From the IMG/VR virus record IMGVR_UViG_2700989521_000019: a DNA stretch of 8,940 bases; one strand, written 5' to 3'. This stretch comes from a virus (taxonomy: Duplodnaviria; Heunggongvirae; Uroviricota; Caudoviricetes). Both the position numbers and the translations under genes were made by a program. Below the pieces are notes generated by a model. The model was not told the origin of the DNA and ran no database searches. It worked only from the letters and a program-made list of their open reading frames with translations. This document shows positions 1,261 through 8,940 of this stretch, in pieces. Each line of letters starts with the position of its first letter. Position 1 is the first letter of the stretch.

Positions 1261-1310
1261 ACAGATACAACGTGCAACAATGAGCAACAATGTGGAACAA
1301 CCACGAACAA
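1261..1310. repeat. Five tandem 10-bp units each ending in (A)ACAA (acagatacaa cgtgcaacaa tgagcaacaa tgtggaacaa ccacgaacaa); helically phased repeat array
   Basis: Read directly; the 10-bp periodicity places AACAA on one face of the helix, consistent with phased binding sites or intrinsic bending, in the int-alpA intergenic region. Confidence 0.5.
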
Positions 1311-3736: not shown

Positions 3737-4036
3737 ATGAAACTTAAATATTCTGGCTTAACTGCCAGTGGCAACACTCACCCTAAATTTACGCGCGGTG
3801 ATATTTACCGCGACCAGTACGGCGGCACGGTAATGATTAAGGACGTGGAAGAACGGCGCGTAACCTACCGCCGTGAAGGTTACGAATATGATTGCGTGAT
3901 GCCTGTTTATCAGTTCCGGCGTGATTTTTCTCTGGTACAGACCGCGCCGCATAACGTGCCCACCAGCAACGCCAGGGCACGGGCAAACATCCAGAAGCTG
4001 AAAACCATGGTTAACGGATTCAGGGGCAAGAAATGA
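3737..4036 (+). CDS. Hypothetical protein (99 aa)
   Basis: ATG 3737 with GGAGAA SD; the stop overlaps the start of the ATPase gene (ATGA-type overlap at 4033-4036). MKLKYSGLTASGNTHPKFTRGDIYRDQYGG... No recognised family. Confidence 0.55.
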   Translation: MKLKYSGLTASGNTHPKFTRGDIYRDQYGGTVMIKDVEERRVTYRREGYEYDCVMPVYQFRRDFSLVQTAPHNVPTSNARARANIQKLKTMVNGFRGKK

Positions 4037-5433
4037 AAAGCGCACCGAACTTAAAAAAACAGCCTTACGACAAGATGACCGAAGTCATTATTTTTGCGGG
4101 TAGTGATGCCTGGGCACATGCGAAACAGTGGCAGGAACAGGACGGGCGACTGGCTGGCGATAATGTGCCTCCCGTTGTGCTGGCTGATGATCAACTGGAT
4201 GAACTGGCAGACCTGAGAATCATCGACGAGGGGCGCTATTGTGTCCGGCTGTACAAGGCAGGCCACATCAGGCCATCAAATATTAATGCCATTGCGCACA
4301 AGCTGGCGGCGGCGGGTGTAACTGATGCGAATTATTACCCCGAAGGGATGCACAGCCATATGCGGGAGAACTGGCGCGAATACCTGGAACGGGTGCGCGG
4401 GAAAGAGCCGGCGGAAGAAAAAAACCACCAGCGAAAAACCACGCTACCGATGAGCGTTGGATCTACCGGATACGACACGCAACTGGATTACGTGGTTAAG
4501 GGGATTATTCCGGCGGTATCGCTATGCAGCATATACGGGGCTAGCGGGTCCTATAAATCATTCCTTGCCGGATCGTGGGCGTGCCATGTTGCCACTGGTC
4601 GCCAGTGGGGAGGCCGCAGGGTTGCACATGGTGCGGTTCTCTATGTGGTTGGTGAAGGCGGTATAGGTGTTCCGCGTCGTGTAAAAGCCTGGGAGGTTGT
4701 GCACGATGAGCAGGTGAAAAATCTGTATCTGGTAAACCGCCCCATCTTTCCGGCTGCCCCGCTTGATGTTGATGAAATGGTTATCGCTGCCCGTCAGGTG
4801 GAGCGGGAAACGGGTAAACCTGTACGCATGATTATTCTGGATACGCTGGCGCGTTGCTTTGGTGGGAATGATGAAAATGATTCCCGTGATATGGGGGCGT
4901 TTATCCGTGGTTGTGACGAACTGAAACGACGCACAGGGGCCACGGTGCTGGTGGTTCACCATTCCGGCAAGGATGAGACGAAAGGCGCGCGCGGTTCCAG
5001 TGCATTTCGTGCTTCGCTGGATGCTGAATACCGGATACGCAGGGAGGACGCAGGAAGCGAAGCGCTGGTTATCTCATGCACCAAAATGAAGGACGCGGAG
5101 GAACTCAAAGAAGCCGCATATGACTTACGCGTGGTGGAGCTTTTTACCGACGCTGACGGTGAATTAATCACGTCGCTGGTGGTGGTGGATGATCCGCGCC
5201 CTCCTGTTGAACTGGAGCGCATCGAGGAGGCAGGGAACAAGACGGAAAACCATACCGCGCTATGGGGGTGCATCCGTTCACGCACACAGAACGGCGACAA
5301 GTGCACGATCCCGCTGTTACGTGATGACATGAAAAAGCTGGGGTATGAAATGAAAAACTTCCGGCGCTGGCTGTACAAGCTGGAAAAAGATGGGGTTATT
5401 CGTATCGATGGGGATGATGTAGCGCCGCTATAA
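4033..5433 (+). CDS. RecA-fold / AAA-type ATPase, RepA- or DnaB-like replicative helicase-initiator of the element (466 aa); no recognisable primase domain
   Basis: Walker A-like GASGSYKSF (YGASGSYKSFLAGSW), Walker B-like hydrophobic strand plus acidic residue (VRMIILDTLARCFGGNDEND), downstream VLVVHHSGKDETKGARGSSAF resembling DnaB/RepA-type motifs. About 160-aa N-terminal domain of unassigned function. Long ORF with AGGGG SD. Confidence 0.85.
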   Translation: MKSAPNLKKQPYDKMTEVIIFAGSDAWAHAKQWQEQDGRLAGDNVPPVVLADDQLDELADLRIIDEGRYCVRLYKAGHIRPSNINAIAHKLAAAGVTDANYYPEGMHSHMRENWREYLERVRGKEPAEEKNHQRKTTLPMSVGSTGYDTQLDYVVKGIIPAVSLCSIYGASGSYKSFLAGSWACHVATGRQWGGRRVAHGAVLYVVGEGGIGVPRRVKAWEVVHDEQVKNLYLVNRPIFPAAPLDVDEMVIAARQVERETGKPVRMIILDTLARCFGGNDENDSRDMGAFIRGCDELKRRTGATVLVVHHSGKDETKGARGSSAFRASLDAEYRIRREDAGSEALVISCTKMKDAEELKEAAYDLRVVELFTDADGELITSLVVVDDPRPPVELERIEEAGNKTENHTALWGCIRSRTQNGDKCTIPLLRDDMKKLGYEMKNFRRWLYKLEKDGVIRIDGDDVAPL

Positions 5434-5622
5434 AAGTGAGGAGCAAAAGCGAGGGGGATAGAAAGAGGGCCAAAATTAGCCCGCTCTCCCTCACTTTTCG
5501 ACCTGTATACATCCTCAAAAGTGAGGGGTAAAAAAATACTTATGAAACACACACATAGAAAAACCGAAAATCCCAACTGCGACGAAGTGAGACGCTTGAA
5601 AAAGTGAGGCGAAAAAGTGAGA
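5433..5622. repeat. Iteron-like cluster: six copies of core AAGTGAG (consensus AAAGTGAGG) at 5433-5441, 5489-5497 (inverted), 5518-5526, 5585-5593, 5601-5609, 5614-5622, plus degenerate copies (AAAGCGAGG 5446-5454); candidate ori or operator array
   Basis: Read directly in the 200-bp intergenic region between the replicative ATPase gene and the ssb-containing operon. Confidence 0.55.
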
Positions 5623-5633
5623 GGTTGCGAGAA

Positions 5634-6605: not shown

Positions 6606-6701
6606 GCACCAGTTGAAACGGTATGGCGCATTACCGGGTTTTCGTCACGGTCAGGCATAGTTACTATCTGAAACAAACAGACACAACAGAGGAAAAAAAC
6701 A

Positions 6702-6968: not shown

Positions 6969-7007
6969 GCGCCCAAAAAAAGCCCGGCGAGTCAGATTTC
7001 ATCAATC

Positions 7008-7208
7008 ATGGACAGCCTCCCGCTTACTATGCAAAGGAGCTTCCCACAGATTACCCCCGCCATGCTGGATAGGCTTAAAAGGGAAGTGGTTAAAGCCTGT
7101 AATGCCAGTGCCAGAGTTGCCGACAACCTCCCACAGATACTGGCTGATTACTTGAAAGAAACAACCGGAAACGTACCGGAAAAGTTGCTACAGAAGAAAG
7201 GCGAGTAA
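7008..7208 (+). CDS. Hypothetical protein (66 aa); weak call, start and RBS unclear
   Basis: ORF only; no convincing SD for ATG 7008, 7029 or 7062. MDSLPLTMQRSFPQITPAMLDRLKREVVKACNASARVADNLPQILADYLKETTGNVPEKLLQKKGE. Confidence 0.3.
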   Translation: MDSLPLTMQRSFPQITPAMLDRLKREVVKACNASARVADNLPQILADYLKETTGNVPEKLLQKKGE

Positions 7209-7463
7209 CAGACGCGCAATTATTGAACAAAACTGAGAAACGACATGAAAGCGTCATAAATCGCCATTTTAGATGATTACCGTGTCGTTTCTTTTTATTG
7301 TGTATCTATTTAAAAACAAATAGTTATGTTCGAGAAGTACCGACATGCTTTTTCCAGAAAAATTTTCATAAACAGATAAAAACCGCGAGGTCGCCGCCCC
7401 GTAACGGGCCATAATTCCAGGAAGGACCCGACGACACCAGACTATCAGAGCGATGGGGGCACA

Positions 7464-7745
7464 ATGACAGAAGCCGAACTACTGGGATTAATCCGCCGCG
7501 TTACCGGAATCAGCCAGCAGCATGACGAACAGGCCACGCAGCCGGACAGCGTGACCGCCGAAAATTACGCGCGTGTGGTTGCTGAGGTGATGCGCCGTGA
7601 TGGTATCCAGCTTAATGATGTGGATATGCGCAACATACGGATCCGCGTTCTTGAAATGCTGGCCTACAATCGCCGCGTGGCACTGTATCGGGAAACGGAG
7701 AAAATTACGTACCACTGGAAGAAGCCGGAGCGGTTACGGCGTTAA
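7464..7745 (+). CDS. Hypothetical protein (93 aa)
   Basis: ATG 7464 preceded by a GGGGG run; ORF with balanced composition (MTEAELLGLIRRVTGISQQHDEQATQPDSVTAENYARVVAEVMRRDGIQLNDVDMRNIRIRVLEMLAYNRRVALYRETEKITYHWKKPERLRR). No recognised family. Confidence 0.45.
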   Translation: MTEAELLGLIRRVTGISQQHDEQATQPDSVTAENYARVVAEVMRRDGIQLNDVDMRNIRIRVLEMLAYNRRVALYRETEKITYHWKKPERLRR

Positions 7746-7750
7746 CGAGT

Positions 7751-7800
7751 AGCGACATACCGTGACGGAGAGTGACAACCAGTGACACGCCGTGACAAAA
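7751..7800. repeat. Five tandem 10-bp units carrying core GTGAC/GCGAC (agcgacatac cgtgacggag agtgacaacc agtgacacgc cgtgacaaaa); helically phased repeat array
   Basis: Read directly, immediately after the stop of the 7464-7745 ORF; second 10-bp-phased array in the window (compare 1261-1310). Confidence 0.45.
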
Positions 7801-8574
7801 GACGGTTTAACCGTTAATTAAAAATTGACGGGATTTTGTGCTTTCCGGACGACGTGGCCAACGCCATTTTTTAGCGAAAAGTTCTGATTAAGGTCATTGT
7901 CTGAATGGTCATAATGACCACTCCTACAAAACAGGTAAAGCCCACCAGCCTGATTAACAGTTAACCGGAAAAAAATCCGGTAGCCCCGTTATGGGGATCC
8001 CCATATCAACATTAACGCCCCTCATGAATTAGCGCGCTTCCCCCTGGAAAGATGACCCGCCTGTATATTTCTTGTGTCTATTTGTTCCACGTTGTTTCAT
8101 ACAGTGCACCGAACGGTGTAGTCACTGGTGTAGTCATTTTGCGATTTATGGCACTTTTTGTAGTGAAAACCCCGTTTTTTCTTCCTTTGCTAATAATAAT
8201 GTCTTTTTCGCTCCGTCATCATAACGAAAATCAAACCGCTCAGGTAAAGAAGTGAAAATATTTTGAGTTAATTCTTAAGCTATGATACAAATCAGGCGTG
8301 TTCAACTACCGAGGACAATTATCATCCGCGATGACGAGAAGCAACACTGCGGATAATTGTAATATTATGGACAATTTGTTCAGGACCTTATTTTCAACAT
8401 TTACCCATCTTCGTACCTCATCCACTATCTTGCTCGTAGGTGAGCAGCACTGGCGCAACGCGCTTTAGTCCTTTCTTCTGCCTAAGCTTGCCCTATGCGC
8501 GGGGCTTGACCACTTTACTTTGATTTCGCTGAATTAAGCGAAAATTAAAATAATTCTCTTGCAGGAGAAGGACA

Positions 8575-8940
8575 ATGTATATTTATTGGATTTTATTAGG
8601 CCTGGCTATTGCTACAGAAATTACCGGTACGCTGTCAATGAAATGGGCGAGCGTCAGTGAGGGAAATGGCGGCTTTATTTTAATGCTGGTGATGATTTCT
8701 CTGTCGTATATATTTCTCTCTTTCGCCGTTAAAAAGATCGCCTTAGGCGTAGCTTATGCGCTGTGGGAAGGTATCGGTATTTTATTTATTACCTTGTTTA
8801 GCGTTTTGTTATTCGACGAAAGTTTATCGCTGATGAAAATTGCCGGGTTAACCACCCTGGTCGCCGGGATTGTGTTGATAAAATCAGGTACCCGTAAAGC
8901 GCGTAAACCTGAACTGGAGGTGAACCATGGCGCAGTTTGA
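8575..8940 (+). CDS. mdtJ: Multidrug/spermidine efflux SMR-family transporter subunit MdtJ (121 aa), complete
   Basis: Translation ([33 protein letters not shown]...[21 protein letters not shown]) matches Escherichia coli MdtJ as I remember it; small four-helix hydrophobic SMR protein; AGGAGA SD 7 nt upstream; stop TGA 8938-8940. Confidence 0.93.
8927..8940 (+). CDS. mdtI: Start of mdtI (SMR partner subunit), truncated by window end; only codons MAQF visible
   Basis: ATG 8927 overlapping the mdtJ 3-prime end, reading MAQF, consistent with the remembered MdtI N-terminus and the mdtJI operon arrangement. Only 14 nt visible. Confidence 0.45.

Follow-up and report, generated by a model that had tools for sequence, protein, structure and literature searches.

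The 8,940-nucleotide stretch analysed here (the window; IMG/VR virus record IMGVR_UViG_2700989521_000019, Caudoviricetes) is E. coli chromosome with an integrated satellite, and we are concerned with the non-coding DNA at the right end of that satellite, positions 7751-8050, where an array of five 10-bp-phased GTGAC-type units is followed by a cluster of palindromes. The satellite begins with int (1-1218; Arm-DNA-bind_3 and Phage_integrase by Pfam) and alpA (1585-1773), continues with a RepA-type helicase gene (4033-5433), SSB and PerC genes and the C-terminal remnant of a Nu1-type small terminase gene (7008-7208), and ends with a gene for a 93-aa protein of phrog_1561, a family with no assigned function (7464-7745, plus strand, stop codon at 7743-7745); mdtJ starts at 8575. 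Gram-negative phage-inducible chromosomal islands (GN-PICIs) are defined by int, alpA, a pri/rep gene with a two-set iteron origin and a lambda-like cos, within ~8-15 kb that lack tail and lysis genes (PMC6092414). Pfam, PHROG and the annotation of relatives identified int, alpA, a pri/rep gene with an adjoining two-set iteron origin and a lambda-like cos in this element, which, judged by these genes and sites, is a defective lambda-cos-type GN-PICI satellite in tqsA. The window was compared with relatives L001, L003-L007, L009-L013, L015 and L254, with the empty site of L002 (K-12-type) and, for empty-site and occurrence comparisons, with 5426 complete E. coli genomes.

Relative to the intact satellite L001 (strain STEC17-183), the window lacks two segments. 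The first, with its deletion point at window position 6986, corresponds to L001 8834-11587 and holds the genes for the major capsid and decoration proteins with their neighbours, the 5′ portion of the Nu1-type terS, and a plus-strand cos. The second is 184 bp at the right junction, comprising the last 41 bp of the element, the attachment (att) core ATAACAGCA and 129 nt from the 5′ end of tqsA; all tqsA-site relatives keep these 184 bp. In L001, the 9-bp core, defined against the empty site, is duplicated by the insertion in tqsA, while in the window the core is absent and the flanking att direct repeats of a mobilisable PICI are not present. Nearly all of the 5426 genomes match window 8170-8940 only, and homology to the empty site starts exactly at 8170, 6 bp upstream of the tqsA start codon, so that alignment to the empty site and to intact relatives places the element/host junction at 8169|8170. 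This junction occurs in none of the 5426 genomes, in which the best matches are all split in two pieces spanning 305 bp. Given the 184-bp loss and a junction present in none of these genomes, tqsA is doubly destroyed and the element locked in, and since the right att core and the capsid segment are gone, the comparison identifies the window element as a decayed copy, incapable of excision.

These comparisons relocate the boundary that the original prediction had presumed at 7751-8050, where it proposed an attR with arm sites or a regulatory hub upstream of mdtJ. The stretch is indeed element DNA near the right edge, rather than the ordinary conserved mdtJ upstream DNA that was named as the refuting outcome, since the empty site aligns only with 8170-8940; the boundary itself lies beyond the array, at 8169|8170. 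The mdtJ/ydgV upstream region is host DNA from 8170, which leaves the regulatory hub unsupported. Nor does the stretch correspond to attR, as the core lies far to the right in intact relatives (~415-460 bp from the array) and is missing from the window, and left arms contain no copy of the GTGAC array. No open reading frame (ORF) of at least 40 aa lies wholly inside 7753-8051, in agreement with the predicted non-coding character, and a sigma-70 promoter scan found nothing in 7400-8600. From these alignments we regard 7751-8050 as a non-coding mosaic right-end spacer, situated past the last gene and before the integrase arm sites; it belongs neither to attR nor to the regulatory DNA of the host.

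The iteron-like array (7752-7806; TGTCAC on the minus strand) reads on the plus strand as GCGAC (7752-7756) and four GTGAC units starting at 7762, 7772, 7782 and 7792, followed by the tail AAAAGACGGT, and its first unit lies 7 bp past the stop codon of the 93-aa gene. Helical phasing, scored from three short direct repeats upwards, is seen here in five units spaced at exactly 10 bp. The pattern GTGAC-N5-GTGAC-N5-GTGAC (at most one mismatch) gave three overlapping matches against 0.00 expected from 200 dinucleotide shuffles, a lag-10 self-similarity scan found only two such arrays in 8940 bp (1249-1324 and 7748-7802; shuffles ~0.02), and Tandem Repeats Finder reported period 10 at 7771-7798. 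The five phased units that had been predicted are therefore borne out at 7752-7796, far above chance, with the correction that the first reads GCGAC. An AT-rich patch (7797-7828, ~65% AT) follows the array, and no DnaA box was found near it. The suggested likeness to an operator repeat at 2475-2554 holds for a common TGACA pentamer and fails for the phasing, as the GTGGCTGACA copies there lie 45 and 25 bp apart. These three copies (2475-2484, 2520-2529 and 2545-2554) bracket a TTGACG-17-TAATAT promoter that separates a divergent YlcI/YnfO-family gene (minus strand, 2274-2453) from an Icd-like operon; they have the look of a classic operator set, which bears no relation to the GTGAC array.

In the lambda paradigm, the replication origin lies inside the initiator gene. 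IMG/VR was scanned for the exact pattern of four GTGAC units at 10-bp intervals, which gave at least 120 loci, with 79 non-redundant arrays among the matches listed; 53 of these 79 fall within ORFs of 90 aa or more, and the ORF runs antisense to GTGAC in all 53. As origin iterons embedded in mostly initiator genes, they follow the lambda paradigm. In most such ORFs the array is situated towards the middle, commonly near residues 120-190 (44-56 in the enteric L016 type), and encodes ..SRxVTxxH.. ahead of an acidic linker. The 49 such ORFs scanned matched mostly replication-initiation PHROGs (among the matches listed, phrog_3729 in 20 and phrog_1408 in 14), with further matches to PHROGs 2509, 9474, 5810, 1032 and 345 (O-like), to a DnaD-like loader, and to Pfam DnaT and Phage_rep_org_N. 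A separate group of IMG/VR phages (L028, L017, L049, L051, L107 and L129) has a variable number of copies, 4-9, of AAACGGTGACA/TTCAGTGACA in the DNA from the large terminase gene to the portal gene.

The enteric representative of these initiator genes, L016 (L286 in O157:H7), belongs to a lambdoid prophage, where it is flanked by cro and the cII-like ydaT on one side and by 'replication protein P' on the other, in the lambda-O position. It contains six GTCAC at spacings of 10, 10, 10, 11 and 11 bp, and four to five more in a mid-gene block that is followed by AT-rich DNA; one of its blocks and the satellite array have 17 nt in common, TGTCACGGCGTGTCACT. The satellite array matches initiator arrays in core, period and number of copies (TGTCAC, 10-11 bp spacing, blocks of 4-6), and the N-terminal part of the enteric initiator is present in 2186 of the 5426 E. 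coli genomes (40%), in up to five copies each. Because ydaU of Rac-SA53, which has the C-terminal DnaT-like part in common and a different N-domain, contains a single GTCAC and no phased array, the array goes with the N-terminal DNA-binding domain of the initiator, and 10-bp-phased GTCAC arrays are a widespread signature of one family of such N-domains. No cognate initiator was detected by tblastn and a profile hidden Markov model built on 49 initiators in the window, L001, L009, L010, L011 or L254, while the positive control, a prophage initiator, scored E = 4e-59; hence we call the array an orphan.

The element has a different origin of its own. In the GN-PICI origin as described, an AT-rich region with one iteron set on either side follows directly on pri-rep (Fillol-Salom 2018, PMC6092414), and the same architecture is found at 5433-5625 (plus strand), directly after the RepA-type helicase gene, where two sets of another motif, AAGTGAGG (5433-5530 and 5585-5624), surround an AT-rich stretch. 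The GTGAC array resembles the described origin in being made of iteron-type repeats in a PICI, and is a second array, unrelated to the one at 5433-5625. We rejected the array as the satellite's own origin in view of this canonical site; moreover, the window and L001 both carry the array with unrelated helicase/primase bodies, and L010, with an L001-type primase, lacks it. The window helicase and the D5-type primase of L001 (L001 5412-7166) have only a 125-aa N-terminal domain in common (62% identity).

A packaging site (cosB or pac) was likewise considered and rejected. An exact lambda-type cosN, GGGCGGCGACCT, lies inverted as 'cos2' at 7388-7399 (minus strand), with cosB-like inverted GAAACGACA/TGTCGTTTC elements at ~7240-7295, on the other side of cosN from the array; the array is found in satellites with Nu1-type or unidentified packaging modules and is absent from one with a P27-type TerS-TerL. 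Two cos sites are known from E. coli PICIs such as EcCICFT073 (PMC6092414, PMC6739421). Intact relatives of the window element have the second on the plus strand upstream of terS, and the window keeps the inverted one only.

With its location, boundaries, statistics and distribution established, and with motif, phasing and copy number identical to those of phage iterons, we infer that the orphan array is bound by an initiator and that this binding has consequences for replication. In the reading that we favour, tentatively and at slightly less than even odds, the array is of the same kind as the iterons in initiator genes of temperate phages, including the lambda-O-position initiator of Rac/Stx-like lambdoid E. 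coli prophages, and is a binding site in trans for the initiator of a phage that acts as helper or competitor; the palindromes are terminator or hairpin modules of a mosaic spacer. Binding in trans is proposed because the satellite's own origin is a different one and no gene for such an initiator is present in it. The protein would come from a prophage, either a helper or a competing one, and the N-terminal winged-helix 'replisome organiser' domain of that protein would contact the array. The initiator might thereby be recruited for helper-driven replication or, after amplification of the satellite, be titrated, as at plasmid incompatibility loci. The late operon would end at a weakened intrinsic terminator, with a co-varying hairpin and a palindromic block as separate modules.

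The array is present in 282 of the 5426 complete genomes, in satellites at the tqsA, phoQ, yejO/tRNA-Pro and smrA sites, and its presence is independent of the type of Int, AlpA, helicase/primase and packaging module. A BLAST search with the array region found nothing beyond chance matches among deposited phages. Among eight variants, the core GTGAC(A) is invariant save for the GCGAC first unit of the window's type, and all other substitutions fall in unit positions 7-10. The copy number is 4 or 5, L015 being short of exactly one 10-bp unit. In the smrA-site satellite L011, the array is inverted at the right end (24640-24760), has units nearer to the prophage consensus (TGTCACGAT, ATGTCACGGC, GAGTCACGAT) and is followed by a second phased repeat, four copies of ACTACG.

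This pattern bears on whether the array is a non-functional relic, a drifting fragment of a captured prophage initiator gene. PICIs do capture late genes of their helpers (PMC10111431), and the window element is decayed, having lost capsid genes, cos1 and attR, and has the deviant first unit. The flanks, however, have no initiator homology, with only weak tblastn matches (E >= 0.04), which cover the array together with its 3′ flank and are explained by the repeat, and drift is hard to reconcile with substitutions that, GCGAC apart, are confined to spacers, with copy number shifting by whole units, and with persistence in at least four integration-site lineages. We consider a relic highly improbable. 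Because the core is invariant while spacers vary, several integration sites are represented and copies change by whole units, the variants instead identify the GTGAC array as a selected, portable accessory module.

In nearly all satellites examined, L011 excepted, the array adjoins the 93-aa gene, directly or after spacer units, an association that could mean that it binds another protein, either the 93-aa product or some other satellite protein, or a host winged-helix regulator with tandem sites of the PhoB/OmpR type. For the host regulators, TGTCAC is similar to the half-site of the pho box, CTGTCAT/C, and direct repeats arranged head to tail are what response regulators bind; pho boxes, though, have an 11-bp period and A/T spacers, and the period here is 10 bp with G+C-rich spacers. 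As for the 93-aa product, relatives that lack the array carry its gene just the same. The protein has no Pfam, NCBIfam or PDB sequence match, and its single-sequence AlphaFold2 model (three helices, mean confidence pLDDT 73) gave no fold match at E <= 0.001 and no helix-turn-helix match; a scan of genome contigs with the 93-aa protein returned a single locus. Binding by a protein other than a phage initiator therefore seems unlikely to us.

Beyond the array, all four palindromes of the original prediction are present, two of them longer than claimed, and their density is real. Counting arms of at least 6 and loops of at most 7, the stretch holds 7 nested (4 distinct) inverted repeats against 0.61 +/- 1.0 in 500 shuffles, none of which reached 7, and 7751-8050 is the densest 300-bp stretch of the window in this respect. 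ACGGTT-T-AACCGT (7802-7814) forms the 3′ edge of the array module; L001, L003 and L013 retain it, L004 and L012 have it disrupted, and there is no compensatory change. A weakened intrinsic terminator follows at 7850-7872 (plus strand), with a terminator-like site at 7854-7867 and a T run. In relatives (L001, L003, L004, L012) the terminator reads ATGACGTGRCCAACGTCA followed by T6, and the window has ACGCC for ACGTC, a single T-to-C change. TGGTCAT-A-ATGACCA (7906-7920) is a recurrent hairpin module with co-varying arms, 3 of 5 pairs having changed on both sides among relatives (GC/CG/UA, AU/GC, CG/GC). Finally, a conserved 'F' module (7964-8005) contains ACCGGA-A6-TCCGGT (7964-7981, one pair longer than first described), CCCC-GTTAT-GGGG and TATGGGGATCCCCATA (7990-8005), a 16-bp perfect palindrome of which the 10-bp core alone had been noted. 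This module is conserved even in L254 and L013 despite differing integrase, AlpA and arm repeats; its RNAalifold support is weak (-9.8 kcal/mol).

The hairpins raise the possibility that the stretch acts as RNA, as a structured 3′ untranslated region that closes the late operon and holds hairpins as well as a terminator, the array having no role in DNA binding; in the circular form, transcription could then read through towards int. The plus-strand terminator 55 bp downstream of the array in relatives fits such a role, as do compensatory and G-U changes in the 7906-7920 hairpin and in upstream hairpins of relatives. An invariant 5-nt core in a strict 10-bp direct repeat gives no RNA structure, however, and the array lies in the opposite orientation in L011. 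Rfam gave no match at E <= 1 anywhere in the window, and the consensus RNA fold is weak. A purely RNA-level function is thus improbable, and we take the palindromes to be terminator or hairpin modules of the mosaic spacer, separate from the array.

Relatives have the stretch from the 93-aa gene to the arm built up of modules, namely GGTAAC..TGATATT units, the GTGAC array with its invariant tail, the terminator block, the hairpin and the 'F' block; the window is without the first of these. The tandem units, GGCGCGGTAACTnnyTGATATTyyCG, differ in the perfect palindrome that comes after each of them (CCTCAATTTGAGG, GCGCAAAATTGCGC, GCGAAAATTTTCGC, ATCCCCCATTGGGGGA) and lie at L003 2531-2830, at L005 2531-2990 and at equivalent positions in L007, L010, L012 and L013. 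Palindromes of the form CCTCAA-N3-GAGG are lambda-O-type iterons in some IMG/VR phages (L260, L266 and L279, from a scan for two copies of CCTCAA-N3-GAGG), and the best palindromic-iteron match, L260, sits at the end of a high-GC contig. The GGTAAC..TGATATT palindromic units may be further mimics of helper origins. More speculatively, and in our estimate improbably, right-end spacers could form a cassette-like 'library' of helper-origin mimics whose combinations differ by satellite, the elements of which may include the GTCAC-type iteron array of the window, lambda-O-type palindromes such as CCTCAATTTGAGG and ATCCCCCATTGGGGGA in GGTAAC...TGATATT units, and other phased repeats (ACTACG). If so, a satellite could recruit or titrate the initiators of whichever lambdoid helper or competitor it met, a DNA-only layer of interference or hijacking that has yet to be described for phage satellites.

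The att arms lie to the right of this spacer. Both arms of intact relatives contain three to four phased TTGTnnC sites followed by two copies of GGTGTAGTyA, and window 8082-8140 is 81% identical to the L001 left arm beside int. In the window, the right-arm copy consists of three 10-bp-phased TTGTnnC sites (8072-8098, plus strand), which recur upstream of alpA and in the left arms of intact relatives, and of two GGTGTAGTCA repeats with a 12-bp period (8115-8136, plus strand), candidate integrase arm-type sites of which the same pair adjoins int in the left arm of relatives. Further members are the first 10-bp array of the window, five TTGTTSC between int and alpA (1264-1310, minus strand), a TTGTnnC pair upstream of alpA (1524-1540) and intergenic sites at 6660-6686. 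The pattern TTGTnnC-N3-TTGTnnC (at most one mismatch) has 12 matches in the window against 0.81 expected, concentrated in intergenic DNA, and one in 12.7 kb of L001 host DNA; L001 1374-1410 belongs to the same network. In L010 (phoQ/roxA) and L011 (abgR/smrA), where Int and AlpA are 85-91% and 92-94% identical to those of the window, the motif is kept in phase with altered spacers within a region of ~73-75% identity.

Because they accompany window-type Int and AlpA and are absent from L254, whose Int and AlpA are 25% and 28% identical to those of the window and whose arms carry AGTTATACG repeats, the TTGTnnC sites are probably bound by AlpA and/or Int. AlpA has been reported to activate its own promoter (PMC6092414), which fits the sites upstream of alpA; we found no description of AlpA boxes in the literature searched. 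The arms of L009 (tqsA), L010 (roxA/phoQ) and L011 (abgR/smrA) are almost identical across three chromosomal sites, with integrases 85-91% identical; a shift in target specificity seems to have left arm recognition as it was.

The GTGAC array could itself belong to the att region, as integrase arm-type sites or as phased sites for a directionality factor like AlpA or Xis. Helically phased direct repeats are typical of arm sites and of factors of the Xis, Cox and Apl type, as the sites of lambda Xis and P2 Cox illustrate. A few IMG/VR arrays of GTGAC lie 120-500 bp upstream of integrase genes (L062, L102, L103), and the minus-strand units loosely fit TTGTnnC. On the other side, L254 carries the same array despite its unrelated Int, AlpA and arm repeats, and the close relatives L004-L007 and L010 lack the array despite window-type arms. 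The array has no left-arm copy, its distance from the core in intact relatives is the ~415-460 bp given above, and the TTGTnnC arrays and GGTGTAGTCA repeats, present in both arms, are better candidates for Int and AlpA sites. An att role for the GTGAC array is therefore very unlikely. We also rejected a common function of the two 10-bp arrays, both of which fit TTGTnnC on the minus strand: L254, without TTGTnnC arrays, keeps the GTGAC array, the invariant bases differ, and TTGTnnC-type phasing is a generic pattern in viral contigs.

Returning to the binding of a helper or competitor initiator, several observations weigh against it. The link between array and initiator is made through motif, phasing and copy number, and the likeness to enteric iterons extends to TGTCAC(G), the prophage consensus being TGTCACGAC and the satellite spacers differing from it. 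Phased GTGAC arrays are found not only in initiator genes but also upstream of integrases, as described, and between terL and portal genes (the L028 group), so that other binders may come into play. Many functional-looking relatives have no array, so that it is dispensable. Lastly, the moderately AT-rich DNA after the array amounts to ~30 bp and, relative to iteron polarity, lies on the side opposite to that in the prophage mid-gene array. Because this patch is short and on the 'wrong' side, and has no DnaA box, the version in which the array serves as an auxiliary origin is weakly supported.

Whatever its function, the anatomy of the locus is corrected with respect to the true boundary, the loss of attR, the arm sites, the element's own origin and cos. 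Satellites hijack the capsids, terminases and inducers of their helpers through proteins. If our reading holds, a cis-acting array that captures a helper initiator would constitute a protein-free layer of satellite-helper conflict, and its presence would predict which prophages are exploited or inhibited by a given PICI. In the literature searched, we found no description of helper-type iterons or of helper-iteron mimicry in PICIs.

Among known systems, the attP arm sites of lambda and Xis/Cox-type arrays resemble the GTGAC array as phased direct repeats near an integrase-mediated junction, and differ from it in that the GTGAC array does not follow the type of integrase or AlpA, is without a counterpart in the opposite arm, and can be dispensed with, as relatives show. 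The iterons of lambda-type origins within the O gene are, like the satellite array, four to six short, helically phased repeats, recognised there by the N-terminal domain of the initiator, and the O-position initiator genes of lambdoid E. coli prophages have the same TGTCAC core, period and copy number. In contrast to these origins, the satellite array is intergenic, has no initiator in the satellite and lacks a clear unwinding element on the expected side. Begomovirus satellites are replicated in trans by the Rep of their helper virus, and are thus alike in that a helper initiator would act in trans on satellite DNA, although they replicate as single-stranded DNA by a rolling circle in plants, whereas a PICI has its own replicon. 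For the proposed decoy mode, the counterpart is found in plasmid incompatibility loci, such as P1 incA and the auxiliary iterons of F and RK2, iteron clusters outside the origin that titrate or handcuff the initiator; those loci control the plasmid's own initiator, and the satellite array would act on that of a helper or competing prophage.

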